Source: a candidate division WOR-3 bacterium (GTDB lineage Bacteria; Hydrothermota; Hydrothermia; LBFQ01). Taken from it: a DNA stretch of 53,926 nucleotides. Both the position numbers and the translations under genes were made by a program. Under the pieces are notes generated by a model. The model saw only the letters and a list, made by a program, of their open reading frames with translations. It did no database searches and was not told where the DNA came from. The stretch covers positions 1-53,926 of the forward strand of contig WFXS01000013.1 in the NCBI GenBank assembly GCA_015490465.1. The letters are read 5' to 3'. Of the stretch, positions 621 through 53,926 are shown one piece after another; positions within the stretch are counted from its first letter, which is position 1, and every line of letters starts with the position of its first letter.

Positions 621-626
621 TATAAT
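621..626 (+). promoter_or_regulatory. -10 box TATAAT of rpmH (leaderless-type)
   Basis: Perfect TATAAT 8 nt upstream of ATG 635; no SD. Confidence 0.7.
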
Positions 627-634
627 AGCCGCCT

Positions 635-769
635 ATGTCCATAACCTACAGACCTTCACGGCGTAAAAGGAAGAGAACGCACGGTTTCAGGGCGAGGATG
701 AAGACCCCCGGCGGCAGGAGGGTACTGAAGCGCCGTCGCAGGAAGGGTCGCAAGAGGCTCACGGTATAG
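635..769 (+). CDS. rpmH: 50S ribosomal protein L34
   Basis: Translated by hand (below the ORF-track cutoff): [44 protein letters not shown], with the HGFRARM signature. Confidence 0.97.
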
Positions 770-788
770 CGAACTTTAAAAGGCGGCC

Positions 789-3631: not shown

Positions 3632-3655
3632 GCTACACCGTTAGAATCCAATCGG

Positions 3656-6665: not shown

Positions 6666-6692
6666 CGCCCTAAAATTTTAAAGTTGAAACCT

Positions 6693-7382: not shown

Positions 7383-7424
7383 CCATCAAATTTAAGGGTG
7401 AATCCGGATTCAATTTATATCCTT

Positions 7425-8600: not shown

Positions 8601-8618
8601 ACGGACATTTTACGGGGG

Positions 8619-10349: not shown

Positions 10350-10493
10350 TGACCTGTCTTTATTCTAAGGGTGCCTATCGGTTCGGTGTATGGAAGGGAA
10401 CTTTATGCGTATCCACTTTACCGACGTCAAACTGGCAAAATGTTCCGTTTACGTGGAGCGCTCCCCCTTTATCCGTTTAAAATAACGGCTTAC

Positions 10494-11267
10494 ATGTGGA
10501 GGATCAGGAGAGTACTGCTAAGCGCCCTCAGGTATTTGAAAATTCCCATGACCTTCAGGAACGTCTACGGGGCGAAGATGATGGTGATGGAAGGTATAGG
10601 AGAGGAGTATTTTTTGAGCAGAGAGGAGGTGGGAACGCTTGGTGTTTTGAACAGATTTTTGGGACGTGGGGACGTTTTCGTGGATGTGGGGGCGTACGTA
10701 GGTTTCTTCAGTATGTACGCCTCCCGGATAGTGGGCGAGGAAGGGAAGGTTCTCGCCTTTGAACCCAACCCGCTGGCCTACAGGGTTCTTTTGAAGAATC
10801 TCAAAATGAACTCTATAAAAAACGTGATTGCCCTGAACGTAGCGCTGGGGAGCAGGGAGGAGTACCGTTATCTCTCCATGAACGACAACAGGCCAGCGAG
10901 CGAGACCACGTTAATGGATACGGGTCGGAATGGAAAGAGGGTCCGCGTGAGGGTCAGGAGACTGGACGACGTGTTAAACGATCTGGGGATAGGGAATGTT
11001 CGTATGGTGAAGATAGACGTTGAAGGGTGGGAGAACGAGGTTCTGAAGGGAACGGTCAGAACGATTGAGAGGTCAAGGCCTATACTTGTAATAGAGAAGG
11101 GGCCGCTCTTTCTGGGCGGGTACATGTATCTGCTGGAAAGGGGATACAGCCCGTTCGTTCTCAAGGGTACCAAGCGAAGGGTGTCGGAGATGGTGCCGGT
11201 GGAGGAGTACGACAACGTTCCGCTCTATGACAACATCATCTTTTTACCGGAAGATGTGCGTCTATAG
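10494..11267 (+). CDS. FkbM-family SAM methyltransferase
   Basis: FVDVGAYVG, AFEP, KIDVEG motifs. Start moved from 10371 to ATG 10494, which lies 10 nt after TAAAAT (10478-10483). Confidence 0.88.
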   Translation: MWRIRRVLLSALRYLKIPMTFRNVYGAKMMVMEGIGEEYFLSREEVGTLGVLNRFLGRGDVFVDVGAYVGFFSMYASRIVGEEGKVLAFEPNPLAYRVLLKNLKMNSIKNVIALNVALGSREEYRYLSMNDNRPASETTLMDTGRNGKRVRVRVRRLDDVLNDLGIGNVRMVKIDVEGWENEVLKGTVRTIERSRPILVIEKGPLFLGGYMYLLERGYSPFVLKGTKRRVSEMVPVEEYDNVPLYDNIIFLPEDVRL

Positions 11268-11304
11268 CAGGTTGGCCCGTACTGAGACACAGGAAAACGA
11301 TATT

Positions 11305-12046: not shown

Positions 12047-12092
12047 GCGTGAGGATGATATTATAAGGCTGAACTGAGGGGGAGGTAGGACC

Positions 12093-19062: not shown

Positions 19063-19093
19063 CGCTCTTTACCTCCTTTTTTTCTCCTTTACT

Positions 19094-19175
19094 AAAAAAG
19101 CGACCTGCAATTATACGGCCGTTAGGCAGGTCGCAACGTACCCAAACCCTCTCAGGGGGCAGGGTGCGTATTCTA
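19094..19175 (-). promoter_or_regulatory. Structured 5' leader of tuf-S10 with a terminator-like hairpin
   Basis: TAGAAT (19170-19175), then an imperfect stem ACGCACCC/GGGTACGT, then a perfect 9-bp stem GCGACCTGC/GCAGGTCGC (19100-19134) followed by T6. Confidence 0.6.
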
Positions 19176-19386: not shown

Positions 19387-20928
19387 TTACCTTATAATAG
19401 CCCTCATATACCCTCCCGATTTCAGGATATACACCCCCTTCCTCTTCGGTCTGAAACCGGAGTACGACCCTCTGTAAATTAACCTCCCGTCCGTGCTGTA
19501 TATTTCAACTTCGCTGTCCGGCACGCTGCACATCCTCTCCTCTACGGTGAGGGAGGTATCCCCTACACCAATAACACATATGCTGCTGAACGTCAGGGGC
19601 CACGTCCTGAAGTGCAGGGTTGTGAGGTCGGTGGCCGGGTAACTCGTAAGGGTATGGCCTGTGCCGGTTGTGAAGGATAGCGATGTGGTTGATGGGTAGT
19701 AGGTACCGGATATACAGCTGGAGCATCCGCTTCCGGACGTATCCACTTTTATGAGCCATGGTTTTCCGTTCGCCCAGCCTACTAAGAGGAGGTTACCGTC
19801 GGGCATGACGGTGAGGCCGTAGATCCTTTCCCTTCCCGAAAGACCGTAGGTCTTGAGCCATAGGACGTTGCCGTTGGTGTCGGCCTTGACCAGAAAACCG
19901 TCTTCCCCTCCTGCTCCCCAGGTGGTGGTATAGCCCACGGCGTAGACGTGGCCGTTGTAGTAGAGGAGGTCGTATACGACTTCGTTCCCCGATGTGCGAA
20001 TCGTCTTTAGCCACGAGCCGTTTCCACTCGTGTCCATTTTCATAAAGTAGAGGTCCCAATCACCGGAAGATGGTTTAGCGATTCCAGATACGAAGATGGA
20101 TCCTGCAGATATGCGTGCAGTACGGGCATCACCACCCCAACCAAATCCCACTGAGTACGAAGGAATCCTCACGTTTTTGCTCCAGAGAATGTTCAGGAGA
20201 GTATCAACGGCGAATACCTTGAGTCTCGCATCAGAGGGCCAACCTCCACCACCGAAGAGAAGAACTTTGTTGTCGGATAGGATCTCAATGTCGCTTAACC
20301 CACTGTTAAGGTAGGAACTACTGCTATTACCATGAAAGGTCCTTATACGGAGAAGATTGCCGGAGGGATCGTATAAAGCCACTTTCGCGTCCGCACCATC
20401 GCATGCACAACTGGTCTCCCGTCCAGCAACTATAAAGATCCCGTTCCAGAGATCTACCTTTCGCAGGTGTGCGCCCAGATAGTTCCCGCAACAGTTCCAT
20501 CTTGATCTGGGTACCCTCCTCACCCTGTACCATACGAGGTTGAGGTTGCGATCAAACTTCGCCACGAAGTGGGATGGTGCCGGAGAGGGAGGAGCAGAGC
20601 CGTAAAACATCCCTCCCATGACCACGTAAGCGCTGTCGGGTGTGGTGATGATATGCCTTGGACCCACGGTTCCACCGAAGCCAACGAGGTTGCTCCTCAG
20701 GACGTTCCCGTCCGGGTCTATCTCAAGGAGGGCGAGGTAACTCGTCCCTGCGGAGTCAATGCGAGCGGCTACCACGATAGATGTCCCCGAAAGACTTAAG
20801 GTAGCAGATTCGGCGTATCCGCTACCGAAGGGATCGGCGTTGTAGTTCCTGCACCAGTAGGAGATCTGGGCGTCCAGACGCCCAAGCGCAAGGCCCATCA
20901 AAAGCGCTGCGGTTATGCTCCTTTTCAT
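19387..20928 (-). CDS. Secreted beta-propeller-like repeat protein with T9SS-like CTD
   Basis: Classical signal peptide MKRSITAALLMGLALGRLDA; repeats 'K.D..GN..W.KT'; C-terminal IYSTDGRLI...GVYIL. Confidence 0.75.
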   Translation of the reverse strand: MKRSITAALLMGLALGRLDAQISYWCRNYNADPFGSGYAESATLSLSGTSIVVAARIDSAGTSYLALLEIDPDGNVLRSNLVGFGGTVGPRHIITTPDSAYVVMGGMFYGSAPPSPAPSHFVAKFDRNLNLVWYRVRRVPRSRWNCCGNYLGAHLRKVDLWNGIFIVAGRETSCACDGADAKVALYDPSGNLLRIRTFHGNSSSSYLNSGLSDIEILSDNKVLLFGGGGWPSDARLKVFAVDTLLNILWSKNVRIPSYSVGFGWGGDARTARISAGSIFVSGIAKPSSGDWDLYFMKMDTSGNGSWLKTIRTSGNEVVYDLLYYNGHVYAVGYTTTWGAGGEDGFLVKADTNGNVLWLKTYGLSGRERIYGLTVMPDGNLLLVGWANGKPWLIKVDTSGSGCSSCISGTYYPSTTSLSFTTGTGHTLTSYPATDLTTLHFRTWPLTFSSICVIGVGDTSLTVEERMCSVPDSEVEIYSTDGRLIYRGSYSGFRPKRKGVYILKSGGYMRAIIR

Positions 20929-21677
20929 TTTCCACCTCCTTTTAGGCTGTAAGATATGCCCATATAAGGGGATAGAGTACTTTTAGTTGTATACCCTGCT
21001 CCGTGGTAATTAAAGTAGTTCAATTTGCTTATTCCGAACTCCGCAAAAAATTTCTTATACGATATATTTGTGTCAATTATTATGTATCTGTCATGCCCAG
21101 ATATAAGTTGATCTATCATATAAAATAGATCATGCTCGTACCTATTTAACATTAGAACTGATATTAACAAAATGTAATCCTTAGTGTATATTCTTACCCC
21201 TATGAACGGTATCGCATAATATGCGAAACCTAACTTAACCGGACCGATCATAACATAAGGATCAAGGAAGGCATAATTTGATAGATTTGAGCTGTTATAG
21301 CATGTGCTACAATAATTCGCCACTATTCCGAGATTACAGTCCATACCGATGAACACATCGGGTGCCGTGATAGGTGCGAAGAACTCACGTATAGAGCCGG
21401 GTGTCAGATTGTATTCAATATTAAACGAATAACCTACATGAGTTCCAATATTATTTATTTCTCCGCTTCCGGAATTTACAGAGTCGTCAATAACATAACG
21501 ATAGGCATACCTTCCATTTGTAAACGAACCTTGAACGAATATTTCATGCTCAAAGTTGAAACCCTTCGGTTTCTCACGATCCACTTTGAATATGGGCGTT
21601 GATGTCAGGTAAGGTTCAACGAACCCTGCAAGAACCGTCACGATGCACATCCACATCATAAGGTATTTTAATCCCAA
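20925..21677 (-). CDS. Hypothetical exported protein, possible beta-barrel; AT-rich
   Basis: 250 aa ORF, hydrophobic N-terminus, C-terminal strand PYMGISYSL; stop overlaps the next ATG. Confidence 0.6.
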   Translation of the reverse strand: MGLKYLMMWMCIVTVLAGFVEPYLTSTPIFKVDREKPKGFNFEHEIFVQGSFTNGRYAYRYVIDDSVNSGSGEINNIGTHVGYSFNIEYNLTPGSIREFFAPITAPDVFIGMDCNLGIVANYCSTCYNSSNLSNYAFLDPYVMIGPVKLGFAYYAIPFIGVRIYTKDYILLISVLMLNRYEHDLFYMIDQLISGHDRYIIIDTNISYKKFFAEFGISKLNYFNYHGAGYTTKSTLSPYMGISYSLKGGGK

Positions 21678-21745
21678 TGGGCTATCACAGGCGGGTCAAT
21701 AATTTTTGAATTTATAGAAGACATACTGACGAACCCACGGTTTGT

Positions 21746-22612
21746 TTACTCTATCTCCTCAACTTTGACCTTCTTTCTCCGCCATGGCCGTATGCGATAG
21801 GATATACTGGCGTCTATAAAGGCTATGTTCCCCCACTCCCTTGACCTGATGTGCATTACGCCCAACGTCCCCGTTAAGTCTTTAAAGTTCACGTTGAGAG
21901 TCATAAGTGGAATAGATCGGGAAGCATCAACGTACTCTTCCCATCCAACACGGATGAGATAAGCAAACCATGCCGTTCTCAAATCACCACTTATAGACAG
22001 GTACGGTATGGGCCTTATTGATATGCCGGCAATTGTGGCGTCAAGTTTCAGGAGATAGCAGCTCTTGAAAAGTCCGGGGCATATATCCCACGGATACCTT
22101 TCTAATACCGTCCAACTGTCCAACATTTCTAAGGCGGTCGGGTACGATAATAGCGACAAACTAACATTAAATGGAATAAAGCGTATATATTTTGAATTTA
22201 TATCTACATACGTGTTAAGGGTCAGGGAAGGGAACAGGACATCAACCGTATCGTATCTGTAGGGAAAGTAATAGGGGTCCTCAACTCTTGTTGCAAGTAC
22301 CCTTACGTTCCGTGAAGCCCTGAAATACCCTGAGAATCCCCATCCGACTCTGGAGTCTCCGAACTTCCTGTACGTATTAACAACCGCATAACCGTCGTAC
22401 TGATAGGAGTATGTAAAAGGCCAATCACCGTACATATTCATATACCCTCCCCCCACTCCAACGCTAACACCGGCCTTTCCGAAGTTGTCCGTATACGTAG
22501 GATACATGGGGAAGCTTGCCGCGCCCTGGTAGTACCCCTGTTTATCAATAAACACCACACCCGAAATACATCCCGAAAGAAATACCGAAAGCGCTATTAC
22601 GAGCCTTTTCAT
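21746..22612 (-). CDS. Hypothetical lipoprotein, beta-rich
   Basis: Lipobox LSGC at residue 15; alternating aromatic strands; FIDASISYRI near the end. Confidence 0.65.
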   Translation of the reverse strand: MKRLVIALSVFLSGCISGVVFIDKQGYYQGAASFPMYPTYTDNFGKAGVSVGVGGGYMNMYGDWPFTYSYQYDGYAVVNTYRKFGDSRVGWGFSGYFRASRNVRVLATRVEDPYYFPYRYDTVDVLFPSLTLNTYVDINSKYIRFIPFNVSLSLLSYPTALEMLDSWTVLERYPWDICPGLFKSCYLLKLDATIAGISIRPIPYLSISGDLRTAWFAYLIRVGWEEYVDASRSIPLMTLNVNFKDLTGTLGVMHIRSREWGNIAFIDASISYRIRPWRRKKVKVEEIE

Positions 22613-23562
22613 TCTTCCTCCTCCACGTTTATCTTAAACTTTCTTACGTCATCGTTTACGCGCACTTTCAGGATGTAGGTGCCGGTTTTGAGGTTCAGGC
22701 GGTAGGTGTGTTTCCCTTCCTGCAGGGTACCGAGGTCCTTCTCGTCCAACAGGGTACCGTCGGGGGATAGGATGAAGTACCTCACCCTCACCTGACCGCC
22801 ATCCACCGTAATGATGAGACTATCTCCCTGAACCGTAACGTTATAGGTTTCGCCTTCACCTTCTATCTCCCTTGAGGACGTAATCCCCTTAACCGCCATA
22901 ACCGGGTGGCCGTTCAGATAAACCTTCACCTTCCCCTTCTCTATAAGAGGATAAACGTTTAAGCCCCTTGAAGCCTCCTTGTATCCCCCGGCTATCTTAT
23001 ACCCCTCCTCTGAATATACCTCGTACTTGAGTTTTCCCTCCACAGGCGTGTAAACGTACAGACTATCCCCTTTGACGTAGAAGTAGGTTGGCATACCCTG
23101 AGGGTAGCGGCAGTAGGCACGGAGCTTTTTGAAGTTCTTCCTCAAATCCTTTACCCTGACCTTCTGGTATCTGAAAAAGGCGTTATCCAGACCGCAACCT
23201 ATGGAACCTACGAGAAATTCTGCCGGTACGGTGAGGATCAACAGAAGGCCGTGCAGTATGGATGCCGACATCATTAAGGGGGTGAAGACGAGCCAGAAAG
23301 TGGAAACGTTCCCCCTGTCGTATACGGGAACAACTACGCTTGATACCTCCTCTAAGGGCATTGAGTACGTCCTGCCTTCCTTGATTATCCACAGCGTATG
23401 ACTGTCAACGGCGAGGAGTTCGTCGGCCACTATTCTCTTACCCTTCACGGAAAATATAACGGCCGGCATGCCGCGGGGGTCGGTTGAGGGGTACCTTCTG
23501 GGAGTAACTACGGAGGCACATCCGCTCAAAAACACGACTAAAACGAGCAGCCCCCTCATCAC
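22609..23562 (-). CDS. Hypothetical lipoprotein with C-terminal CTD/Ig-like domains
   Basis: Lipobox LSGC; internal hydrophobic hairpin; ends ILSPDGTLL...LKTGTYILKVRVND. Confidence 0.65.
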   Translation of the reverse strand: MMRGLLVLVVFLSGCASVVTPRRYPSTDPRGMPAVIFSVKGKRIVADELLAVDSHTLWIIKEGRTYSMPLEEVSSVVVPVYDRGNVSTFWLVFTPLMMSASILHGLLLILTVPAEFLVGSIGCGLDNAFFRYQKVRVKDLRKNFKKLRAYCRYPQGMPTYFYVKGDSLYVYTPVEGKLKYEVYSEEGYKIAGGYKEASRGLNVYPLIEKGKVKVYLNGHPVMAVKGITSSREIEGEGETYNVTVQGDSLIITVDGGQVRVRYFILSPDGTLLDEKDLGTLQEGKHTYRLNLKTGTYILKVRVNDDVRKFKINVEEEE

Positions 23563-25082
23563 AGACCTCCTTTCCTTTCGTACTTGCTGTTCCAGAAGCC
23601 CTCCTCAAGGGCGCGTTCTACCTCTTTGTACTTCGGCGTTAGCAAGCGGAAGTACACGTCCGGAAGGGTGTAAAGTAGGGCGAGCATTACGGGGTTCTCC
23701 TCCTTAACCCACTCCTTCCTCTGCCACTCGTAGTAGTACCCCGTTGAGGCCAGAAACAGGCGATAACTACGGCCAGAGTACCTGCTGAGGTCAAATCTGA
23801 AGACCACCGTATCCCCCGGAAGGAGAATAACCGGAAACTCCTTACCAACCCCTCCCCTCTGTATCCCGCTGACGTCCATATCAAAGGGAGATATAACAAC
23901 GGGGTTTCCCTCCCCAACTACATCCGCAACCCCCACGTAATCTATCTTCCAGAAGCCTTTCGTACCCACGAGAAGCACCTCGTACTCCCCCTCATTTAGA
24001 TAGCCCAGATCTACTGCGGCGTTGTTGTGGGCGATGGGTCCTACCTCCGAGATCTCCCCCATAACCTCACCGTTCAGTATCACCTTCAACTTTCCAAACC
24101 TTGCAAATACCCCTCTCTTCCGAAAACTACCCTTTCCCTTCTCCTCAAGCATCTTTAGGTATTTCGGATAGTTCCATCCCATATAGGCTATGCTCTGGTA
24201 GAGGAGAAAAGTCGTCATCAGCGTTTGCCTGTAGGTTATCACGAGACCCTTCCTTCCAGCCCTCTCAACCTCTATCCTTACCCTTAAGGTCTCCGGAGTT
24301 AGGAGGTTGTTGGAATCCGCCCAGCTCCTGTACTCGTACCCGTCCCTTACCTTTACCATATCTGTCCTGTTCCCATCCTCCGTCAGAAACGCCTTCACTG
24401 GCCTCTCGTTCTTCACCCTCAGGAAGGCCCTCTCGTCTGGTGTTGTATATACTTCCTCGTCTTCACCCTTTTCAACGAGTATCAGTTTCTGATCCACTAT
24501 GTACTGGGTCTCAAGGGCTTCGTTCTTGGCCACTACGGAAAGGGTACCTGCAGGAGGTGTCCTCTCAAGCATATCAATATCGGTTTCCATCAGGGACTTC
24601 GCTATGGACATGGAGAAGCCCTCCGCCTCAAGGTTCCACCTGTGACCGTCATACGTGTAATACACCGGACAGGAGCCGAAAGCGGCCTTTACTGTGACAA
24701 ATGCCAAAGGTGTCCAACTTATAGCACACATTACAACGTCTACTGTTATCAAAAGGGTGCGAACTTTGTTAAGTGATAAAGAGTACTCGTTGACTTCCAC
24801 CAGGGCTATGCTATCCTTGTGAAGTTTAAACCTTCCCTTCTCTACGAGCCTTCTTGAAGGAGAGTAAAGGCTTCCCTTAAAAGTTATGTAATCTCCCTCC
24901 ACCTTTATGCTCTCCGCCACGTATACGCTTCCGTCCCACATGTGGAACTTTATGCCTGCCGCTTTCCCACTTTTCAGGCGTTCCGGCTTCACTAAGTATC
25001 TATCAAGGTGTTTGTACGTGCATCCTCCTACCACCGAGATAAGGGCCAGGACAAGAATTGCGGCCTTAATCTTCCCCTTCAT
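23559..25082 (-). CDS. Hypothetical lipoprotein (GSCP-motif family)
   Basis: Lipobox VGGC; internal TM-like segment followed by GSCPVYYTYDG...EAEGF...NEALETQY; GYYYEW near the C-terminus. Confidence 0.7.
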   Translation of the reverse strand: MKGKIKAAILVLALISVVGGCTYKHLDRYLVKPERLKSGKAAGIKFHMWDGSVYVAESIKVEGDYITFKGSLYSPSRRLVEKGRFKLHKDSIALVEVNEYSLSLNKVRTLLITVDVVMCAISWTPLAFVTVKAAFGSCPVYYTYDGHRWNLEAEGFSMSIAKSLMETDIDMLERTPPAGTLSVVAKNEALETQYIVDQKLILVEKGEDEEVYTTPDERAFLRVKNERPVKAFLTEDGNRTDMVKVRDGYEYRSWADSNNLLTPETLRVRIEVERAGRKGLVITYRQTLMTTFLLYQSIAYMGWNYPKYLKMLEEKGKGSFRKRGVFARFGKLKVILNGEVMGEISEVGPIAHNNAAVDLGYLNEGEYEVLLVGTKGFWKIDYVGVADVVGEGNPVVISPFDMDVSGIQRGGVGKEFPVILLPGDTVVFRFDLSRYSGRSYRLFLASTGYYYEWQRKEWVKEENPVMLALLYTLPDVYFRLLTPKYKEVERALEEGFWNSKYERKGGL

Positions 25083-25800
25083 CCTTTATAACCTCCGGTT
25101 TTGCTTTACGCCCTATCCCGATATCCGTAATGCTAAGTATAACCCCGACGCTTACCCGAACGTCCCTCCCGTAAAACCTTTCAATTGTTATGTTCTCCAA
25201 CTTATAATAGGTGTTATACCAGTATATCTGGGGAACGACTGCGATGTATAAGTTCATACCGTTGTCCGTGATATAAACGTATTCAATCGGGAAATTCCAC
25301 TGTCTTCTACAACTCATGTATTCAAAGGCCAGCGAAAGCACACCTTTCCTCTTAAGCTTTCCGTATACGCTGAAGACGCGTTCCCTACCCGAAGCTAAGT
25401 CGTTTATACAGAGCATCCATCCCCAATAAATACCGATGGAGAATCCGCCAGCGCTTGCACTCCAGAAGAGGGACAAAGGGTATATATCAAAGTCAAGCAG
25501 ACGCCTCACATCGCCAACTAAGGAGTAGCCGTACTCTATAGATGAAAACATACCGAGTCGGATGGTGTTAAACAGCTTAGGACCGACTTGCACGCCTAGA
25601 CTTCCCTGAAATGTAGGGTAGCCACTTCTGTAAACCACAACCGTATCTGCGTAGCCGTAGTAAGGCAGGGAAGTTTTATAAATACCTTCCAACCTTTCAT
25701 AAACATATCCCCCACCTCCACCTACCCTCAACCATCCACCCAACCCTACATCCCCCAACGGCGGAACGTATCCAAACGTCAAAAGGGCAACACCCGACAT
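25066..25800 (-). CDS. Hypothetical beta-rich (outer-membrane?) protein
   Basis: 244 aa, Gly/Tyr-rich amphipathic strands; SD GAGGT. Confidence 0.6.
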   Translation of the reverse strand: MSGVALLTFGYVPPLGDVGLGGWLRVGGGGGYVYERLEGIYKTSLPYYGYADTVVVYRSGYPTFQGSLGVQVGPKLFNTIRLGMFSSIEYGYSLVGDVRRLLDFDIYPLSLFWSASAGGFSIGIYWGWMLCINDLASGRERVFSVYGKLKRKGVLSLAFEYMSCRRQWNFPIEYVYITDNGMNLYIAVVPQIYWYNTYYKLENITIERFYGRDVRVSVGVILSITDIGIGRKAKPEVIKDEGED

Positions 25801-25810
25801 TTCTACCTCA

Positions 25811-26467
25811 TCACCACACCCTCACATCCACTCCCAACCCCAAACGCGGACCGGAGAGGTCAAATTTCTTGCAGTCCCCCGAGCATTCTAAAAGGACATC
25901 AAAATCCCTGTCCAAAAAAATATCATTGCCTTCTTTATCCTTACCCTTGTAGTTTTTAGCGCTGACCATGGGGTAGCTCAGCGAGATGTAAGGGGATATC
26001 CTTCCAAAGGGGAATTTTACGGATATGGAGGGATTGAAACCGAGAACCAAAGGCGCGCTGAACTGGTAGGTCTTTTTCTCCTCGTGTGGGCTTGGATAGG
26101 AGTAGTAATCGTAATACTCGTACTTAGCGCGGGAATATACGACAGGTACGCCGATGGCAGCCTCTAACATCACCCTGCCCAGAGCGGTCTCCAGAGATGC
26201 GAAAGGCTCAAAGAACACGGAAGAGACGTCTATATGCCTATAGTACTTGCTGGACGAGCTTGCACCACCCCATCTGACGAGCATCATATCGTACCGGAGT
26301 GTTAGACCCGTCTGAAGACCAAACGGCCATGAGTAGTACGCCCTGAAACCCCCTCCGAAGGTCCTGCCTAAGTCAATGCGGGCGTACCCATCCGAGGAGG
26401 TCGTATCCCAGCTGTACATCTCACCGGTTGCAACACCACCGTATAGGATAGGCCCTACGTAGATCAT
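25811..26467 (-). CDS. Putative outer-membrane beta-barrel protein
   Basis: Amphipathic strands; C-terminus DLSGPRLGLGVDVRVW ends in an aromatic beta-signal. Confidence 0.65.
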   Translation of the reverse strand: MIYVGPILYGGVATGEMYSWDTTSSDGYARIDLGRTFGGGFRAYYSWPFGLQTGLTLRYDMMLVRWGGASSSSKYYRHIDVSSVFFEPFASLETALGRVMLEAAIGVPVVYSRAKYEYYDYYSYPSPHEEKKTYQFSAPLVLGFNPSISVKFPFGRISPYISLSYPMVSAKNYKGKDKEGNDIFLDRDFDVLLECSGDCKKFDLSGPRLGLGVDVRVW

Positions 26468-28073: not shown

Positions 28074-28182
28074 AATGCAGACGAAATTTTAATGCCCCTT
28101 CGTATTCACGGTCGGGTGGAAAATTAACGCACTTATGCCCGGCATTATCCAAAAACCCGGCTCTGTTTACTGAAATCGTCCC

Positions 28183-29709
28183 TCACTCCACCTCAACCCT
28201 CGGATAAATCCTATTCCCCTTTACCAGAAACACGTTTCCGAGCCTCCTCCTGAGGTACCTCACAGTTGAAGTGGAAAGGCTGGCGTTCTCAGTCAGGAGG
28301 GCAACGGCGTCCCTGTAGTTCCTCTCATCCCTGAACTTGACGGTACGTCCGTCAATCCATACCTCCTTCCTACTGTGGTAGAACTTTACCCTGTGGGGCA
28401 GGGAGAACCTGAGGACGTTTATAACGTCCCTGAAACCGTAAAGACGGGAGAACCTGTACGGATACACCGCGGCCATAAAGTTGAGGTGTAGGAGCAGACC
28501 GTATTCCTTTGCCGTTGAGACGGCCTCCTCAAGCCTTCCCCTTATCCACAATCTGGCCACGTTCTCCCGGGGGTTGTCCTTGAGGTTCCCAACCTTATCC
28601 GTGAGGACCGCTCTTGCTATCCTCCCGTACATGGTGTCGGTCGGTTGTTCCGATATATCTATCAGATAACTCCGGGGATCCTCACCCCTGTAAGCGGCGA
28701 ACGTACACCGGGCCACCAGATAGGCCTGCAGGAATATACCCTCCCGGAACTCCGCCGGATAGGTCTCCTCAAACTCAGCGTCCGAAACGGGCATCCCGAG
28801 ACACATCCTGAGCATCACCTTGAAGTGCCTTATCCAGAACCTCTCTATGTCGTTATCAACCTCGGGGTTGTGGCGGAGTAGTTCTGCCCTGAGCAGGGAG
28901 GACAGAACTATCGCCTTGTGGACTTCCTTTCCGTTGTATTCAAGTCTGGTCCTCCGTAGCACCCTGTGCGCATCTATCATGTATCCGAGGTTTATCAGGG
29001 CGTTGACCAGAGCCTTTACCCTGACCCTCTCAAGGTACGGGTTACCGAACCTTCTCTTACTAACCGCCCTCACCAGCCTCCTAACCACCCCCATATTCCC
29101 GGCGTTGGGGGCGGACAACGACAGTATTCCGAGGGCGTTTACGAGTATCACCGGGTTCAGACTCCCGAAATCGTAGGGGTTTATCTCCTCTTCGTACACC
29201 TTAACGACCTCCTCGTGCCTCCCCATAAGCATAAGTACGTTCATCTTTAGGAGGGAGGACAGCGGGACGTAGAGTAGCTTCCCCTCCCGTAAAGCAACGT
29301 GCCTTATGTCTTCGGCCATCTCAAGGGCATCGCTCAGTGACACCTTTCCCATCTTTAAACCCAACAGCGCACGGTTCAACCTGTGTTTCAGGGGTAAGGC
29401 CTCATAGGGAAGGTCAAAGAACCTGTTCAAACGTTCGGCGTCAGAAGGCACAGGCAAAAGCTTAAACAGCTCACGGGCGTACCTCCACGAGGGAGTACCC
29501 GCAGCCTCAACGCACCTGTCAAAGAGTAGGTTGCTCTTTTTGGAAGGTTTGCCGAAGAAGAACTCCCTGAATATCCTGCTCACGTATCCCTTTGATACTC
29601 CGCTCGCCAGAGCTATATCGGAGACGACGTAGTTATAACTTCCCTCTATGCTCCTTATTACCCGCAAGCATTTTCCCTTTTTTCTGTAAAGTCCACGAAG
29701 TATCTCCAT
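28183..29709 (-). CDS. Putative transcriptional regulator (N-terminal HTH plus long helical region)
   Basis: VSDIALASGVSKGYVSRIF HTH pattern; TPR-like helices; C-terminal 'KEVWIDGRTVKF' wHTH-like strands. Confidence 0.55.
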   Translation of the reverse strand: MEILRGLYRKKGKCLRVIRSIEGSYNYVVSDIALASGVSKGYVSRIFREFFFGKPSKKSNLLFDRCVEAAGTPSWRYARELFKLLPVPSDAERLNRFFDLPYEALPLKHRLNRALLGLKMGKVSLSDALEMAEDIRHVALREGKLLYVPLSSLLKMNVLMLMGRHEEVVKVYEEEINPYDFGSLNPVILVNALGILSLSAPNAGNMGVVRRLVRAVSKRRFGNPYLERVRVKALVNALINLGYMIDAHRVLRRTRLEYNGKEVHKAIVLSSLLRAELLRHNPEVDNDIERFWIRHFKVMLRMCLGMPVSDAEFEETYPAEFREGIFLQAYLVARCTFAAYRGEDPRSYLIDISEQPTDTMYGRIARAVLTDKVGNLKDNPRENVARLWIRGRLEEAVSTAKEYGLLLHLNFMAAVYPYRFSRLYGFRDVINVLRFSLPHRVKFYHSRKEVWIDGRTVKFRDERNYRDAVALLTENASLSTSTVRYLRRRLGNVFLVKGNRIYPRVEVE

Positions 29710-29739
29710 AAATTGGGGACATTATAACGGTGTAAGGTA

Positions 29740-31509
29740 CTACATCTTTATAAACTTGCGCACATTACACCCACATACTCCGAAGTACACCCCCCTACCC
29801 CTCACGCGCTCCACCCTCCTGCCGTCAGGTGTGTATATCCTCTCCGTTTCCGTACACGTCCCGTTCATTCCTTCGTCTCCGGATTCGTAAAGGCCCACGG
29901 GTATATCGCCACCGGTCGCCTCCCTCCACCTCGCCGCAAGGTACTGGAAGAACTGATCCGCGAAGTGCCTGCTGTAAATTATCACAACCACTTCATCGCT
30001 CCGGGTAAAGCCGTTGTAACTCCAGTTGGCCGAACCGAACTCCACGGCCGAGAGGTCCCTTATGGCGAACTTATCGTGAAAGGTATAACCGTTGAGGTAA
30101 TGGGTGACGTAGGTAGGAGGCCCCCACGTGCGCATGGTCTGGCTCTCGGAATAGGAGCTGTTCCAGTCGGAGTAATCAAAGAGTCCGACGACCGTACGAC
30201 CGCTATTATGCAGGGTGCGATAGGCATCCCTCACGCCGTCGTGGGTGAAGACGTTTATTCCAAAGTGTATCTGGGTTGACGTGGAGAGGATGAAACGGGT
30301 AAAGGCCTGCTCGGCCGTATCCGCAGGTGGGAACCACACGCCTATACTCTCGGCGGGAAAGTAGTTGTCCGTGTTGTGGGTCTTCTGGGTCCCGAACTTC
30401 GCTGCGGAGGGGTTGGGAGTATCTCCCGTACTCCCCCACATCTCGTTAAACTCCGCCAGAAACTGACGGGCGACGTTGGGTATCCGTATGGCTGTCAGGT
30501 TGTTCACCTGAAGGGTATCCGCGTAAACCGTGAAGTTGTACGAACCCACCAGTACGACGTCGTTCGTCGTATCGCCGTCCCGCGTATCTATTGAGACCAC
30601 CTTCATGTGCATGTAGCCGTAGTCCGAGCGGGTGTCGTCGGAGAGTACGGGTATACCGGCCGATCTGAGCTGGTTGATGTAGGAGTTGTCGTTGGAGGAC
30701 TCGTAAATTACCCTCACCTTCACCCCGCGGTTGTGGGCGTCTATCAGGGCGTCGGTTATGGTCTGGGATGTCAGGTTGTATATGGAGACGTCCACGCTGT
30801 ACCTCGCCTTATCTATGAAACGGGCGACGATAAAGCGGAGGGTGTCGTTCCCGTAGTTCTTCACCACCCGCGATACGGTGGTGTCCGTGGATTTGTTGAA
30901 AAACGGCGTGTAGTACCTGAGGGCTACGGGCGTTATATCCCCATCGTCCCGTGGGACGAGGCGGTAGTTGTCGTTGTACTGATCCACCACACCGGTAATG
31001 TAAACCGTATCGCCAACGAAGGGGAAATAAGATAGTGTCTCCCTGTTTAAAGCGTAAACGTCTGCTCCGTTCCACGTAAGCACGTACTCCCCTCTCCTGT
31101 TTACCCACGCGTCCTTTACCCATCCCTCAAGCCTTACGAGGACCCCCTCAAGGCTCTCGGCCACCTCCGGTATAACCACGGGTATCGGCGGTACGGGTGA
31201 GCCGCTTCCGAGAACACTGACGGAGGAGAGGACGATCTCCGTCATGTTCCTGTACTCCTGAACCGTACCGGAGACCTCAACGCTGTCCCAGAGGTTTACG
31301 GAGGGCATGGATATGCCGGCGTACACGAATATACCGGACCACGCTCCCACGCTGTCCTGAATGTAGAAGCCCCTCAGATCAGGTAGCACCGCCGTAACGA
31401 CTCCCCTTAAGGTGACGCTGCTTCCCACGTATGGGGAATCCCCGGATGGGTCCGTAGTAAACTGAACGTCCCGTATGGTAAGAGCAGTAAGTACGACGAA
31501 CACCTTCAT
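29740..31509 (-). CDS. Secreted phospholipase D/nuclease with N-terminal OB-fold module and T9SS-like CTD
   Basis: Two HKD motifs (HMKVVSID + GSYN; HDKFAIRD + GSANWS); OB-fold 'SPYVG..VTLRGVVTA...FYIQD'; CTD IYTPDGRRV...GVYF. True start may be GTG 31503. Confidence 0.85.
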   Translation of the reverse strand: MKVFVVLTALTIRDVQFTTDPSGDSPYVGSSVTLRGVVTAVLPDLRGFYIQDSVGAWSGIFVYAGISMPSVNLWDSVEVSGTVQEYRNMTEIVLSSVSVLGSGSPVPPIPVVIPEVAESLEGVLVRLEGWVKDAWVNRRGEYVLTWNGADVYALNRETLSYFPFVGDTVYITGVVDQYNDNYRLVPRDDGDITPVALRYYTPFFNKSTDTTVSRVVKNYGNDTLRFIVARFIDKARYSVDVSIYNLTSQTITDALIDAHNRGVKVRVIYESSNDNSYINQLRSAGIPVLSDDTRSDYGYMHMKVVSIDTRDGDTTNDVVLVGSYNFTVYADTLQVNNLTAIRIPNVARQFLAEFNEMWGSTGDTPNPSAAKFGTQKTHNTDNYFPAESIGVWFPPADTAEQAFTRFILSTSTQIHFGINVFTHDGVRDAYRTLHNSGRTVVGLFDYSDWNSSYSESQTMRTWGPPTYVTHYLNGYTFHDKFAIRDLSAVEFGSANWSYNGFTRSDEVVVIIYSRHFADQFFQYLAARWREATGGDIPVGLYESGDEGMNGTCTETERIYTPDGRRVERVRGRGVYFGVCGCNVRKFIKM

Positions 31510-31553
31510 ATTCTACCGTTGAACTTCACGATGATAGCAGGTAGAGAGTCCTG

Positions 31554-31575: not shown

Positions 31576-31842
31576 GTCCAGATGTACGATTGCTGGTGTT
31601 AATGTCCTTAAAGTTAAGAATTGGATAACTAAAGTGATACACCGAGAGCGTTCAATGAATAGAGGGACTATGGGGATATTAGAAGATTTCCCAGTTCCAT
31701 GATGAACCGTGTAACGCGTAAGAGAAAGAAGGTAGGAGGGCATAGATCTGCATTCCGGTACACTTTCAAAAGACTGGCATTAACTTCGTATTCTGACCCG
31801 TACCGTGGTAGTACCCTAAGACTTCCACCGTAAAATACTCCT

Positions 31843-34665: not shown

Positions 34666-34698
34666 GGTACGGTTATCGTCCGTAAAATTATCGGGGGA

Positions 34699-36957: not shown

Positions 36958-37026
36958 CTATAAGTGTATTATACGCGGGAGTCAAGTGCCGAAACCTACC
37001 GGTTTTAACACCCGTACAATTGGCAG

Positions 37027-38385: not shown

Positions 38386-38959
38386 CCATGGCGTAGGTCT
38401 CGGGGTCGTAAAGGACCACCCGGTCCACCTCAACCGTATCACCGTGGTAGATCACCGTGACCTTAACGTAATGCTCTCCCCTTTCCACGTCCGGTTCCAG
38501 ATACACGTAATCTTTCCCCTTCTCCGTAGCGACCACCTTACCGTCTATGGCCACGTTAACCGATATCTCGCCATCGCCCTGAACGAGGACGTAACCACCC
38601 CAGAGGTCATCAAGCCCCACTATCTCCACCGGTACGGGTGCCTTAGTACCTTCTTCCGTTTCACCGAAGTACCCCTTTACGAGGAAAAGCACGACGAGAA
38701 GGGTGGCAACGGCGATACCGGATAGGGCAAGGGTGAGGACGCGTCCACTGAAACCTCTACGCCTTACGGTGGGCAGGGGCGGAGGGATTACCTCGGAGGC
38801 CGTACCCTCCATCAGGGCAAGGAGATTCCTTTCGTTCTCGTAGATCCTGCGGCACTCCTCACACGTCCGGAGGTGATCCATCACCTCCCTCTTCTCCTCC
38901 CCTTCTAACCTCCCTATGGCTAGAAGCGGTATAAGCTCCTTTATCTCCCTATGGGTCAT
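38369..38959 (-). CDS. Zinc-binding anti-sigma factor (ZAS) with TM segment
   Basis: HLRTCEEC (HxxxCxxC); single TM; directly downstream of the ECF sigma. Confidence 0.85.
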   Translation of the reverse strand: MTHREIKELIPLLAIGRLEGEEKREVMDHLRTCEECRRIYENERNLLALMEGTASEVIPPPLPTVRRRGFSGRVLTLALSGIAVATLLVVLFLVKGYFGETEEGTKAPVPVEIVGLDDLWGGYVLVQGDGEISVNVAIDGKVVATEKGKDYVYLEPDVERGEHYVKVTVIYHGDTVEVDRVVLYDPETYAMATGGE

Positions 38960-39488
38960 TTTTCTCCTCCTTTACAAGCCTTTTAAGTTTCCCCTTCGCC
39001 CTGTTGAGCCGGGACTTCACCGTCCCCATACTCACGCCGAGAGCCTCGGCTATCTCCCTGTAGGTCATCTTCTCAACGTAGAAGAGGTATAGTACTTCCC
39101 TGTAAGGTTCGGGCAGGGAGTAGTAGGCCCTCTTGAAGGCGCTTAGAGGTACGGCGAAGTCAGGAGTCTCCTCTTCGTCATCGTCGTACTCGCCCTCGCT
39201 GGCGAGCAGGGGGTTGTCCAGATCGTCGGCCTCGTCCGAGTACGGCGCCGGCAGTAGGGGAAGGTGGCGGTTCCTGTATGCCCAGTAATCCTTAACGACG
39301 TTTACGGCTATGCTGAAGAGCCACGTTTTAACCGAGGACAGTCCCCTGAATCCTTTGAAACCCTTCAGGGCCTTCAGGAAGACCTCCGACGTGAGGTCAA
39401 GGGCGTCGTTGTAATCTCTGACCTTTGAGTACACGAACCGGAACACGTCCCCATAATGTCTCCGGTAAACCTCTTCAAACGTCACCAT
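38949..39488 (-). CDS. ECF sigma-70 factor
   Basis: DALDLTSEVFLKA, KTWLFSIAVN, YREIAEALGVSMGTVKSRLNRAK. Confidence 0.95.
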   Translation of the reverse strand: MVTFEEVYRRHYGDVFRFVYSKVRDYNDALDLTSEVFLKALKGFKGFRGLSSVKTWLFSIAVNVVKDYWAYRNRHLPLLPAPYSDEADDLDNPLLASEGEYDDDEEETPDFAVPLSAFKRAYYSLPEPYREVLYLFYVEKMTYREIAEALGVSMGTVKSRLNRAKGKLKRLVKEEKNDP

Positions 39489-41728: not shown

Positions 41729-41761
41729 GACACCGTTATTATAGGGCGGAGAGATAACCCG

Positions 41762-43848: not shown

Positions 43849-43946
43849 GGTGGCTATTTTAAGCGAGAACCCGCGGATCAGATGCCACCGGTTGCCTTTC
43901 CATAGATTACATGATGGGAAACGTTTACCCCTTTAGAATACCCTCC

Positions 43947-44303: not shown

Positions 44304-44306
44304 GGG

Positions 44307-44645: not shown

Positions 44646-44690
44646 GCGTCTGTTATAGTACGAAAGGGGCAACTTTAGAATGCCCGGATT

Positions 44691-48109: not shown

Positions 48110-48277
48110 AGCCGTTATTATACACGGGCAATATGTGGATAGGGCGCTCCGTCTGTACCCCATTGAATCGGACACGGTGCCGTATTTTGATCCGATCTTG
48201 CATTGCTCATCCGCATAGCATCCGGATGTGCCGGAATTTAAAAGCGCCTCTGTTTCCCCCCTTTAAAATACCTCCTT

Positions 48278-50181: not shown

Positions 50182-50204
50182 ACGGCTTTAGAATTCATTC
50201 CTTC

Positions 50205-51171: not shown

Positions 51172-51191
51172 CGGGTGTAGAATAAACGTAT

Positions 51192-53417
51192 ATGTTCCTG
51201 TTCGCGCTCAGTGTTATTGACGTTTCCATCCTCAGCGAAGGAAAGGTAATCCCGAAAAATACACCGTGGGTCCTTACCCTGACCTTTTCGCTTTCCTCCT
51301 CCTCCGACCCCGTTAACCACGTTGAGATAAATCTGGGCGACAGCGCCTCCTTCAGCACCTATACCACGGACGGAGCCTTCAACTACGCATCCGTCAGTAC
51401 GACGTCTAACACGATTACGCTCTCTGCGTTCACCTTTTCACCCGGTGGGAACGCCCGTTTGAGTTTCAGGGATGTCGTGATAAGCAGGAGCGAGGGGTTA
51501 AAGAACCTGTCCGTTAAACTGGCCAACAGTACGGATACCGTGAATTTAAGCGTTCCGGTTGTGGTAATAAGAGAGGATACCACTGTGCCTCTCAAGTTCT
51601 TCCATAACGTACTCTCGGAGAGGCCGGTTCTTATAAACGAGGTCGTGCGTGTAAGGGGTGTCGTCAGTGCCGTATTTGGAAACAAGACTTACATTCAGGA
51701 CACTTTCCGGGATACGGTCGCCGGTCTGGTCCTCTACGGAAGCATCGGCGTTAACCCCGGAGAACTTATAGTCGCGGAGGGTGAATTTGAACCCTACAGG
51801 GGTCTTGAGGAGATATCCTACCCCACGGTACTCTACAGGGAGGTGGTGGGTGTGCCGGAGCCGGTGGTTGTGGACGGGTTGAACAGGGCGAGGGAGAGGT
51901 ACTCCGGCGTCCTGATCAGGGTGGACAGCGTGAGGTTTGATACGACTCCCCTCGTCAGGGTCCCGGTGGGTGAGAACGTACCCATAGTTGACAGGTACAA
52001 CAACTCCGGAAACCTCTACCTTGACAGGTACGGGAACGTGGAGAGCTTCCCGCCTCCGGATACCATATTTGACCTCGTGGGGGTAGTGGACGAGGACAGC
52101 GGGAGTGCCGGTAACATATACCGCATAGTTCCCCGTGAGCCTTCGGACCTCATCTTCTACAACTCCGTTATGGTACTCTCTCAGGCACCCTACTTCGTAC
52201 ACAGGGGGCAGGCGTCCACGTGGAAGTTCCACCTTTCCTCGTTTAACCCCGTGGCGAAACTGCGGGTCTGCTCCGACGGTATAACTCCCTCCGAGATGGG
52301 TGCTGCAAAACTGGGAAGCCGATCACCGGACAACGTCATTACTCTGGCGGATACGGCATGTGCCGAGTTCCTGAACCCGGCCTTTACGGCGGACACTCTG
52401 ACCCTCTCCCTTGATCCTAAAGACGTGGACTCAATTACCGTTCTCCTCTACTCCGCTCTTGATACGGCCGACATATACAGGCGTTCCGTATTCTCTCCCC
52501 GTCTATATTTCACTACTCCCATATCCGACATTCAGGCCTACGGCGAGGATTACTCCTCCAATCTCGTAGGTCAGACCGTAGTGGTCGGAGGTGTGGTACT
52601 GGCGGACGCGTCCGCCTTCAGTACGAGCAATACGTCAACCTACCTCTGGGACGGTACGGGAGGAGTGAACCTCTATTCGTCCCAGTTCCTCGGATTAAAA
52701 GAGGGAATGCTAATAGTGGCACTAGGCACGGTTACGGAGTACAACGGCCTTACCGAGGTTCTCTTCTCCTCGGTTAAGGTACTCGGGAACGGGGAGGTCC
52801 CCTCCCCCACCAAACTGCAGAAGGGTCAGGCCCTGAACGAAGATCTGGAGGGTCATCTCGTCAGGGTGGACACGGTTATGGTAACATCTCCCCCTTCCTA
52901 CGCCGGTATAGGGAAGTCCTTTACGGTTTACAACGGAACCGTTCCCATAACGGTTTACGTTTACCCAACTACGGGTATTGACGTATCCCAGATCAAAGTC
53001 GGAGACTACGTCAGCATCACCGGTATCGTTGGCCAGTACGATAACACTCCGCCCTACACGTCCGGTTATCAGCTTCTGCCCCGCAAGTCCGTGGACCTCA
53101 TGGCCGTCCCCGGAGAGGCCTACGAGGCGGAGAACCTTGAGGTCAAGATATCCCGGAACGTCTTCATAGCCGGGAGGGAGACCGCCCGCATAGAGGTTAG
53201 AGGCCCCAAGGGTACGTACTCCATCAGGGTGTACGACGGCATGGGAAGGCTGGTCAAAACGATAGTTGAGGGGGGTGGTGCCGGAATACACGAGTGGGAC
53301 GGTACGAACATGGCTGGAAGAAGGGTTCCCCCCGGAATATACGCCCTGGTGGTTGTGGTCAACACCCTTGAGGGTAGCCAGAAGGTCGTACGCCCCATAG
53401 TTGTGGTGGCGAAGTAG
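51192..53417 (+). CDS. Secreted tandem OB-fold protein with FlgD-Ig/T9SS-like CTD
   Basis: Two OB modules (VRVRGVV...YIQD...EPYRGLEEI; VVVGGVV...TEYNGLTEV...GIVGQY...LLPR); C-terminal VYDGMGRLV...WDGTN..G..VPPGIY. Confidence 0.75.
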   Translation: MFLFALSVIDVSILSEGKVIPKNTPWVLTLTFSLSSSSDPVNHVEINLGDSASFSTYTTDGAFNYASVSTTSNTITLSAFTFSPGGNARLSFRDVVISRSEGLKNLSVKLANSTDTVNLSVPVVVIREDTTVPLKFFHNVLSERPVLINEVVRVRGVVSAVFGNKTYIQDTFRDTVAGLVLYGSIGVNPGELIVAEGEFEPYRGLEEISYPTVLYREVVGVPEPVVVDGLNRARERYSGVLIRVDSVRFDTTPLVRVPVGENVPIVDRYNNSGNLYLDRYGNVESFPPPDTIFDLVGVVDEDSGSAGNIYRIVPREPSDLIFYNSVMVLSQAPYFVHRGQASTWKFHLSSFNPVAKLRVCSDGITPSEMGAAKLGSRSPDNVITLADTACAEFLNPAFTADTLTLSLDPKDVDSITVLLYSALDTADIYRRSVFSPRLYFTTPISDIQAYGEDYSSNLVGQTVVVGGVVLADASAFSTSNTSTYLWDGTGGVNLYSSQFLGLKEGMLIVALGTVTEYNGLTEVLFSSVKVLGNGEVPSPTKLQKGQALNEDLEGHLVRVDTVMVTSPPSYAGIGKSFTVYNGTVPITVYVYPTTGIDVSQIKVGDYVSITGIVGQYDNTPPYTSGYQLLPRKSVDLMAVPGEAYEAENLEVKISRNVFIAGRETARIEVRGPKGTYSIRVYDGMGRLVKTIVEGGGAGIHEWDGTNMAGRRVPPGIYALVVVVNTLEGSQKVVRPIVVVAK

Positions 53418-53437
53418 ACGGGGATAGAATAGGCGGC

Positions 53438-53926
53438 GTGAAAGTTTTCGTCATAGGACCCTCTTTTGTGGGTAAGAGTACGCTCGTGGGGAGGTTGAGC
53501 GGCGGTAAGGGGGTGGGAACCCTTAGCGTTCTGGACGACAGGTTCCAGAAGCTGGTTCAGGTCTTCAAATCCCGGAAGGCCACGCCCCTCCAGATAACCT
53601 TGGTGGACAGCGATGCCCTCGGAAAGGCGTACAACGAGAACAGGCCCACGAGGGTCTTTCAGGAACTGGCGGAGGCCGACGCCTTCCTTGAGGTCAGTGG
53701 AGGACTGATAGGGGACTTCCTGAGTTTTACGGATACGACCCTGCGCTTCCTGAGTATTGAGAGCGACGTTATATCAAGGAGGATTGAGCGCCTGAGGAAG
53801 GAAGTGGCTACGGGCAGAGGGAGCGAGAAGGAACTTCAGGTCCTGACGAAGGCCCTAGAGTTTCTGGAGGAGGGTACCCCCCTCTACGCTGCCGGATTTT
53901 CCGAAGAGGAACTTAAGGTCCTGCGG
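53438..53926 (+). CDS. YchF/Obg-like P-loop NTPase, partial (runs off the window end)
   Basis: GTG start: MKVFVIGPSFVGKSTL...VLDDRFQKLVQVFKSRKATP...ISRRIERLRKE; YchF-like layout; TAGAAT 7 nt upstream. Confidence 0.7.
   Translation, partial: MKVFVIGPSFVGKSTLVGRLSGGKGVGTLSVLDDRFQKLVQVFKSRKATPLQITLVDSDALGKAYNENRPTRVFQELAEADAFLEVSGGLIGDFLSFTDTTLRFLSIESDVISRRIERLRKEVATGRGSEKELQVLTKALEFLEEGTPLYAAGFSEEELKVLR

Follow-up and report, generated by a model that had tools for sequence, protein, structure and literature searches.

What is the hexamer TAnAAT doing directly in front of so many start codons in a 53,926-nucleotide stretch of DNA (contig WFXS01000013.1, hereafter the window) from an uncultured candidate division WOR-3 bacterium of the Hydrothermota? 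A sequence-only reading of the window had noticed that nearly every gene standing first in its transcription unit has this box a few bases upstream of its start, usually without a Shine-Dalgarno (SD) sequence, and had proposed that the lineage uses leaderless initiation as its default. We have followed this observation through the whole genome (2.05 Mb, 126 contigs, 55% GC, 91.7% complete, with the window as contig C13) and among its relatives. Our analysis makes it very probable that TAnAAT is the -10 element of the housekeeping promoter and that most transcription units are leaderless. The evidence that carries this reading is the fixed position of the box before 826 of 1823 genes (45%), its concentration at the heads of transcription units, its presence before RNA genes, and its conservation across one order of the phylum.

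The 22 boxes originally listed for protein-coding genes of the window proved exact on re-reading in hexamer, coordinate, strand and spacer (6 to 12 nt), and both tRNAs of the window carry the box as had been said, with spacers of 13 and 10 nt. Twenty-one of the 22 are strict TAnAAT, the exception being the TAAATT at 7389, which had been given as such, and each precedes an ATG, GTG or TTG that opens an open reading frame (ORF) of 44 to 741 codons. A C lies six bases upstream of the box at 20 of the 22 sites. Taking both strands together, 21 of the 60 copies of TAnAAT in the window are followed, 5 to 12 nt on, by the start of an ORF of at least 80 codons; the same count for nine composition-matched control hexamers gave 2 to 13 of 36 to 89. 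The sites are given below together with those of the two tRNAs and of tuf; the labels rpmH, mgtE and accC are those of the earlier reading.

621..626, plus strand: TATAAT, 8 nt to ATG 635, 44 codons, rpmH.
3642..3647, plus strand: TAGAAT, 8 nt to ATG 3656, 269 codons, 24 nt past the preceding ORF on the same strand.
6675..6680, minus strand: TAAAAT, 9 nt to ATG 6665, 295 codons.
7389..7394, minus strand: TAAATT variant, 6 nt to ATG 7382, 229 codons.
8607..8612, minus strand: TAAAAT, 6 nt to GTG 8600, 391 codons.
10362..10367, minus strand: TAGAAT, 12 nt to ATG 10349, 576 codons; the long spacer suggests a short leader.
10478..10483, plus strand: TAAAAT, 10 nt to ATG 10494, 257 codons, an internal start of the longest ORF 10371..11267; no C at -6.
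12060..12065, minus strand: TATAAT, 13 nt to the 5' end of tRNA-Glu (12046).
19110..19115, minus strand: TATAAT with C at -6, 47 nt to the tuf ATG 19062; GGAGGT at 19071-19076 in the leader, 8 nt to the ATG.
28086..28091, minus strand: TAAAAT, 12 nt to ATG 28073, 287 codons; no C at -6.
29721..29726, minus strand: TATAAT, 11 nt to ATG 29709, 508 codons.
31510..31515, minus strand: TAGAAT, 6 nt to GTG 31503, 587 codons; an ATG at 31509 adjoins the box.
31831..31836, plus strand: TAAAAT, 6 nt to ATG 31843, 633 codons.
34683..34688, plus strand: TAAAAT, 10 nt to ATG 34699, 190 codons.
36968..36973, minus strand: TATAAT, 10 nt to ATG 36957, 389 codons, back to back with the 37015 box.
37015..37020, plus strand: TACAAT, 6 nt to TTG 37027, 452 codons, mgtE.
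41738..41743, minus strand: TATAAT, 9 nt to ATG 41728, 718 codons.
43856..43861, minus strand: TAAAAT, 7 nt to GTG 43848, 448 codons, accC.
43934..43939, plus strand: TAGAAT, 7 nt to ATG 43947, 118 codons.
44676..44681, plus strand: TAGAAT, 9 nt to ATG 44691, 372 codons.
48117..48122, minus strand: TATAAT, 7 nt to ATG 48109, 266 codons, an internal start of the longest ORF.
48264..48269, plus strand: TAAAAT, 8 nt to ATG 48278, 379 codons.
50189..50194, plus strand: TAGAAT, 10 nt to the 5' end of tRNA-Ala (50205).
51178..51183, plus strand: TAGAAT, 8 nt to ATG 51192, 741 codons.
53425..53430, plus strand: TAGAAT, 7 nt to GTG 53438; the ORF runs off the window.

Does the pattern hold beyond the window? 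The genome-wide set comprised 1823 genes from a simple codon-bias caller made for this analysis, and two tests were applied to it. In the strict test the start was the first ATG, GTG or TTG after the in-frame stop, so that the motif had no influence on the choice of start, and 1768 genes had enough upstream sequence. TAnAAT begins at -17 to -11 in 657 of them, the successive positions holding 39, 36, 125, 173, 127, 133 and 24 genes (173 at -14 and 127 at -13), while each position from -60 to -19 holds 0 to 13 genes, mostly 0 to 6. The relaxed test admitted every candidate start that was in frame and lay within the first third of the ORF, and asked for a box 4 to 11 nt upstream, which yielded the 826 genes. 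Their spacer is 6 nt in 150 genes, 7 in 178, 8 in 210 (the mode) and 9 in 148, so that 686 fall within 6 to 9 nt. The box-linked start is the first possible one of the ORF in 660 cases and lies downstream of the longest-ORF start in 166; it is ATG in 621 genes, GTG in 133 and TTG in 72. The share of GTG changes with the spacer (59% at 5 nt, 28% at 6 nt and only 6 to 8% at 8 to 9 nt), and some starts may be miscalled.

This positional enrichment is far above chance when measured against permuted and displaced controls. Five unrelated permuted hexamers were found at 18 to 42 genes each; three further ones reach 156 to 169 because they overlap with the context of the box, as does TATAATA. Displacing the search to spacers of 14 to 51 gave 147 to 155 genes, compared with 824 at 4 to 11 in the same run, which required 60 nt of upstream sequence. 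The hexamer is positioned rather than over-represented, since the whole genome holds 2285 copies where 2345 are expected from composition, and 36% of these copies stand before gene starts. A further 547 motifs consisting of the box with its upstream C have no called gene, 356 of them being intergenic and 72 antisense inside genes. At 100 of the 356 intergenic motifs an ATG or GTG 6 to 9 nt downstream opens an ORF of at least 30 codons, and these sites are probably small or missed leaderless genes.

The box follows operon structure. It is present in 344 of 456 genes with a divergent upstream neighbour (75%) and in only 9 of 378 genes that overlap the preceding gene (2%). Between these extremes, for genes with an upstream neighbour on the same strand, it is found in 98 of 214 at gaps above 100 nt, 112 of 188 at 41 to 100 nt, 159 of 211 at 16 to 40 nt and 60 of 230 at 1 to 15 nt. 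Short gaps of 16 to 40 nt thus accommodate many promoters. If unit heads are defined as the box genes plus those box-less genes that have a divergent neighbour or a gap above 40 nt, 826 of 1130 inferred heads (73%) have the box. Splitting the genes by operon position, as the sequence-only reading had advised, therefore shows a mark of unit heads and not of internal genes. Its statement that tuf and many operon-internal genes use an SD or ATGA coupling also agrees with what we find: GGAGGT stands 8 nt before the tuf ATG, internal genes employ AGGAGG or four-base overlaps, a strong SD is present in 172 of the 378 overlapping genes, and 172 gene pairs overlap by four bases. The commonest hexamers of box-less genes at the same offsets are AGGAGG (137), AAGGAG (99) and GGAGGT (71). 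A strong SD and a box occur together in 8 of the 826 box genes, a rarity partly due to the fact that both would occupy the same bases. Both genes are boxed in 131 of 228 divergent pairs, with start-to-start distances mostly of 50 to 80 nt, barely more than two back-to-back promoters would take; the pairs 36968/37015, 43856/43934 and 48117/48264 are examples in the window.

The anatomy of the element is that of a promoter. The box carries the invariants of a -10 element, T and A at its first two positions and T at its last. When 684 promoters are aligned on the box and numbered from its first T, C occupies -6 in 91%, -3 in 64% and -2 in 48%, G or T occupies -1 in 87%, and -8 and -7 are rich in T; the box is followed by an A (49%) and then by a C-rich stretch, roughly ACCCnC. 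The resulting consensus is TTtCnnCCkTAnAAT-ACCCnC, two parts of which, the conserved C at -6 and the C-rich sequence just downstream of the box, had escaped the earlier reading. Its remark that no consistent -35 could be seen was borne out: the 684 aligned promoters have no information content at -45 to -10, and hence no -35 element, and TTGACA-like hexamers with at least four of six matches at 17 to 18 bp spacing occur in 41 to 44 of 823 promoters, which does not amount to a -35, with about 26 at other offsets. Extended -10 promoters are likewise independent of a -35 and have extra conserved bases just upstream of the hexamer, which are TGn in Escherichia coli and the TRTG '-16 region' in Gram-positive bacteria. 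The element described here differs in having C at -6, -3 and -2 and G or T at -1 rather than TG; no TGn extension was found in the aligned promoters, in which G makes up 23% and 20% at the third and second positions upstream of the box. Another genus of the family, at 41% GC, has the C at -6 in 30 of 32 promoters. Among accC orthologues from both genera of the family this C is found in 12 of 12, with the box 7 to 8 nt from the start and the sequence farther upstream diverged.

Genes that are not translated carry the same element. A strict box lies 8 to 17 nt before the mature 5' end of 39 of the 48 tRNAs, with a mode of 11 followed by 9. These tRNA promoters have C at -6 in 39 of 39 cases and TATAAT in 24 of 39, and between box and gene they contain a fixed nine-base stretch, ATACACCTC or similar, that ends in CCTC and is followed by a purine. 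Most tRNA spacers imply predicted leaders of 1 to 5 nt; in nine tRNAs the mature 5' end directly follows the nine-base stretch, and these might for that reason be made without any 5' leader. Of the nine box-less tRNAs, five lie directly behind another tRNA or the transfer-messenger RNA (tmRNA) and one behind a fragment of RNase P RNA. The 16S gene has TTTCACCCTTATAATACCC 186 nt upstream. Leadered protein genes are served by the same type of promoter, as at tuf: among 150 SD-led first genes, the box with its upstream C lies within 300 nt in 50, where about 14 would be expected, and the distances cluster at 19 to 47 nt from the start, which leaves just enough room for an SD. Two other RNA genes were seen in passing. 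The sole match to RNase P RNA is a fragment at a contig edge (G000:C95:31-299 and 351-425; 60 and 26.5 bits, below the family cut-off), and the box-less tRNA-Lys about 50 nt downstream of it suggests co-transcription. The tmRNA (G000:C39:12859-13311, tag ANASYALAA) has TATAAT 33 nt upstream and a box-less tRNA-Arg 9 nt downstream.

We present the following model. TAnAAT would be the -10 element of a housekeeping promoter that works without a -35. On its upstream side the promoter would be extended in a manner specific to the lineage (approximately TTtCnnCCkTAnAAT), and an A and a C-rich run would come after the box. In roughly three of every four transcription units, where the box stands 6 to 9 nt ahead of the start codon, RNA polymerase would start at, or a few bases from, the A or G of the start codon; the mRNA would have no room for an SD and would be translated from a 5'-terminal start codon. 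Operon-internal genes and a minority of first genes such as tuf would keep the classical AGGAGG, and the 16S tail its CCUCC. Every prediction that the leaderless reading makes at the level of sequence holds, namely the -10 invariants, the spacing of 6 to 9 nt, the position at unit heads, the rarity of the SD and the occurrence before RNA genes, and most mRNAs of this organism and its order probably lack a leader.

How close to the start codon transcription begins is a finer question. The spacer is rich in pyrimidines (C 40%, A 15%), and 643 of 826 genes (78%) have a pyrimidine immediately ahead of the start codon. From position 7 after the box onwards, the first purine to appear coincides with the initial base of the start codon in 475 of 713 genes, compared with 364 of 862 controls. 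The pyrimidine-rich spacer and the first-purine result fit initiation on the start codon without proving it. Several points weigh against the leaderless model. The first-purine test exceeds its control to a moderate degree only, 96 genes show 10 to 11 nt between box and start, and spacers of 9 to 12 nt may correspond to a leader of a few bases. The usual distance from the -10 element to the transcription start in E. coli is 1 to 2 nt shorter than the spacer mode of 8 seen here, so many transcripts may carry 1 to 3 extra bases. The genes come from a crude, non-validated caller. Some of the 72 TTG starts are probably wrong, since leaderless TTG is nearly absent in Deinococcus deserti (PMC4007540). 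The motif, its position, its link to operons, its occurrence before RNA genes and its conservation are observations, and from them we infer the exact transcription start and the mode of translation.

The alternative that survives best accepts the promoter and shifts the start. Initiation would occur about 7 nt after the box, spacers of 8 to 12 nt would give leaders of 1 to 5 nt, and mRNAs strictly beginning with AUG would be a minority. This would agree with the spacer mode of 8, with the 244 of 826 genes that have spacers of 9 to 11, with the 570 genes, of 782 whose spacer is at least 6, that have purines between position 5 and the start, and with the tRNA spacers of 8 to 17. It does not agree with the abundance of C and scarcity of A in the spacer or with the pyrimidine that precedes 78% of the starts, and the nine-base stretch of the tRNAs, ending in CCTC and a purine, points to starts about 10 nt after the box. 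We regard this alternative as possible but doubtful; transcripts with leaders below 6 nt would in any case still be leaderless by the usual definition.

In a further alternative, the extended motif would be the site not of the primary sigma factor but of a global DNA-binding protein or of an alternative sigma factor, a notion to which the difference of C at -6 and CC at -3/-2 from the classical TGn, and the presence of three sigma-type genes in the genome, lend some colour. However, a motif that stands before tRNA genes, rRNA, tuf and about 45% of genes is distributed as expected of a housekeeping promoter, and the primary sigma (566 aa, G000:C32) possesses regions 1.2, 2, 3 and 4; over the aligned regions 2 to 4, including the stretch that reads the -10 element, solved RpoD chains are near-identical to it. 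A non-primary reader of the box is therefore very unlikely. We take the residues that read the -10 element, the TG extension and the -35 to be retained in the primary sigma. Loss of sigma region 4 was considered and rejected, as region 4 is present. The only other sigma-type genes are an ECF-like gene of 179 aa in the window (38949-39488, minus strand) and a frame of about 317 aa (G000:C29:18917-19123).

Another proposal, that TAnAAT is not a promoter but an A/U-rich, non-SD ribosome binding signal of the Bacteroidetes type within a longer leader, draws on the fact that the box occupies the usual position of a ribosome binding site (RBS) and that the organism has a six-domain S1 protein; AT-rich signals at -20 to -10 have been discussed as possible S1 sites in one study (PMC5397173). 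A signal for ribosomes would not be expected before 39 of 48 tRNAs and the 16S gene, to be almost missing before operon-internal genes (9 of 378), to lie 19 to 47 nt upstream of SD-led starts, or to combine the T-A---T invariants of a -10 box with a conserved upstream C. On account of the tRNA and rRNA cases and of the split by operon position we reject this reading, which has become extremely improbable. A loss of the SD machinery of the ribosome is rejected as well, because the 16S 3' end reads ...CACCTCCTTT, with the anti-SD intact and CCUCC kept, and the six-domain S1 protein is present.

That the signal arises artificially, from start calling, from in-frame stops (TAA or TAG within the box) or from AT-rich intergenic DNA, is hardly credible. 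In its favour, TAAAAT and TAGAAT start with stop codons, longest-ORF starts follow a stop by definition and whole-genome pattern counts were inflated in AT-rich relatives. Against it, the highest peaks are out of frame (at -14 and -13), the stop-bearing control TAnTAA reaches 34 genes compared with 826, the total number of TAnAAT copies is not raised even though more than a third of them precede starts, the upstream C and the tRNA cases are independent of ORFs, and AT-rich relatives outside the order give only 2 to 11%.

How widely does the trait extend? Whole-genome counts of TANAATN{6,9}ATG relative to a reversed control, obtained for 31 relatives, five named genomes and 121 genomes of the phylum, were dropped as a measure; because AT-rich genomes outside the order also gave ratios of 2 to 3, a positional test on sampled stretches was adopted. 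In 57 to 100 kb of each genome it took ORFs no shorter than 120 aa at their longest-ORF start and asked for a strict box at -17 to -11; the numbers of boxed genes were as follows.

The window itself: 13 of 48.
Same family, other genus: G007, 32 of 87.
Same order, other family: G012, 13 of 65; G014, 19 of 81; G017, 34 of 85.
Same class, other families: G020, 8 of 78; G025, 8 of 76; G027, 3 of 44; G024, 3 of 60; G133, 6 of 71; G109, 9 of 79.
Other classes of the phylum: G088, 4 of 43; G065, 2 of 88.

The box thus precedes 20 to 40% of genes within the order, compared with 2 to 11% in the genomes sampled from elsewhere in the class and from other classes of the phylum. Since the high shares extend across the order at 27 to 55% GC, the box trait is a property of the order. 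The two genomes of 27% GC, G014 and G017, have the consensus sCTTTAAAAT-TTTCAA, without C at -6, and the C at -6 is, on the genomes compared, a property of the family.

Two observations stand apart from the promoter. The RpoB frame is long (1484 aa, at G000:C81:6795-8588), and among its best 80 matches, which are spread over many phyla, the conserved C-terminal 800 residues reach at most 46% identity in the best segment; this divergence indicates a lineage that would be deep or fast-evolving. Within the window, positions 20001-30000 have a GC content of 0.48-0.52, compared with 0.55-0.57 elsewhere in the window, and a stronger negative GC skew.

Among known leaderless systems, the closest parallels are in Deinococcus-Thermus and Actinobacteria, the lineages that the sequence-only reading had named and in which the architecture is the same (PMC6028130, PMC4007540). 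As defined with GeneMarkS-2, 'group C' genomes have a Pribnow box 6 to 8 nt before the first genes of operons and an SD-type RBS on the rest; they number 1028 of 4769 bacteria, mostly Actinobacteria and Deinococcus-Thermus, with 25 to 50% of transcripts predicted leaderless, and 40% of the operons of Mycobacterium tuberculosis are predicted to be so (PMC6028130). On sequence criteria our genome fits this pattern in every testable feature; it differs in the share, about 73% of unit heads being predicted leaderless.

The survey that set the highest predicted bacterial share reportedly covered 953 bacterial genomes. It predicted leaderless genes from a TA-like signal about 10 bp before starts, the bacterial maximum being 46.1% of genes in Deinococcus radiodurans (PMC3160421). 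For D. deserti 60% of 1,958 mapped starts are given as leaderless, with a -10 box, no conserved -35 and an SD on leadered mRNAs (PMC4007540). The two systems are alike in lacking a widely conserved -35, in keeping the SD on leadered mRNAs and in having a majority of leaderless mRNAs, predicted in our case. The present lineage differs in its tighter TAnAAT, which has a conserved C at -6 and is followed by C-rich sequence, in the tight spacing shared by almost all free-standing tRNAs, and in a higher predicted share of unit heads (about 73 to 75%). The claim of an unusually high fraction holds on sequence grounds, as the predicted shares of about 73 to 75% of unit heads and 45% of genes lie at or above the published 46.1%, 25 to 50% and 60%.

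Archaea, with 60 to 80% leaderless units in Haloferax, Sulfolobus and Halobacterium (PMC6028130, PMC5397173), have a comparable share. Their TATA element and factor B recognition element (BRE) lie about 22 to 26 nt upstream, however, and not, as here, in the form of a bacterial -10 box 6 to 9 nt upstream. Thermotoga maritima, like the present organism, has a compact genome with short regulatory regions, but it is reported to show no leaderless transcripts and an E. coli-like -35/-10 (PMC3636130). The tRNA genes recall the leaderless tRNAs of Nanoarchaeum equitans, in which the promoter is reported to lie at a fixed short distance from the tRNA 5' end (PMC10100707); they differ in that RNase P RNA is present (partial) and in the short leaders that most of their spacers imply. 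The architecture itself is already known; for its occurrence in this lineage no earlier report was found in the literature on leaderless genes with WOR-3, Thermotogae and candidate phyla, the supplementary species tables of GeneMarkS-2 being outside this coverage.

The known picture of leaderless gene function is unchanged by the finding, of which two details deserve note, the family-specific upstream C element in place of a -35 and the near-leaderless tRNA genes. Taken together, and tentatively, the family may have exchanged the -35 for a new basal element, in which sigma region 3 or the polymerase core would contact the near-invariant C at -6 and the CC at -3/-2; transcripts may begin at their functional 5' end for about three quarters of mRNAs and some tRNAs; and the switch may have occurred independently, at the level of an order, within a phylum that otherwise uses the SD.

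In practice, standard gene callers, which look for an RBS, will put starts of this order in the wrong place, as the 166 of 826 box-linked starts downstream of the longest-ORF start illustrate. The promoter is simple and highly uniform and is for that reason a good case for the study of -35-independent initiation and start-site choice. Because the trait is confined to one order, close relatives with and without it can be compared for changes in polymerase or ribosome. In evolutionary terms, leaderless expression would prevail in a third bacterial lineage, represented by this order, in addition to Deinococcus-Thermus and Actinobacteria.

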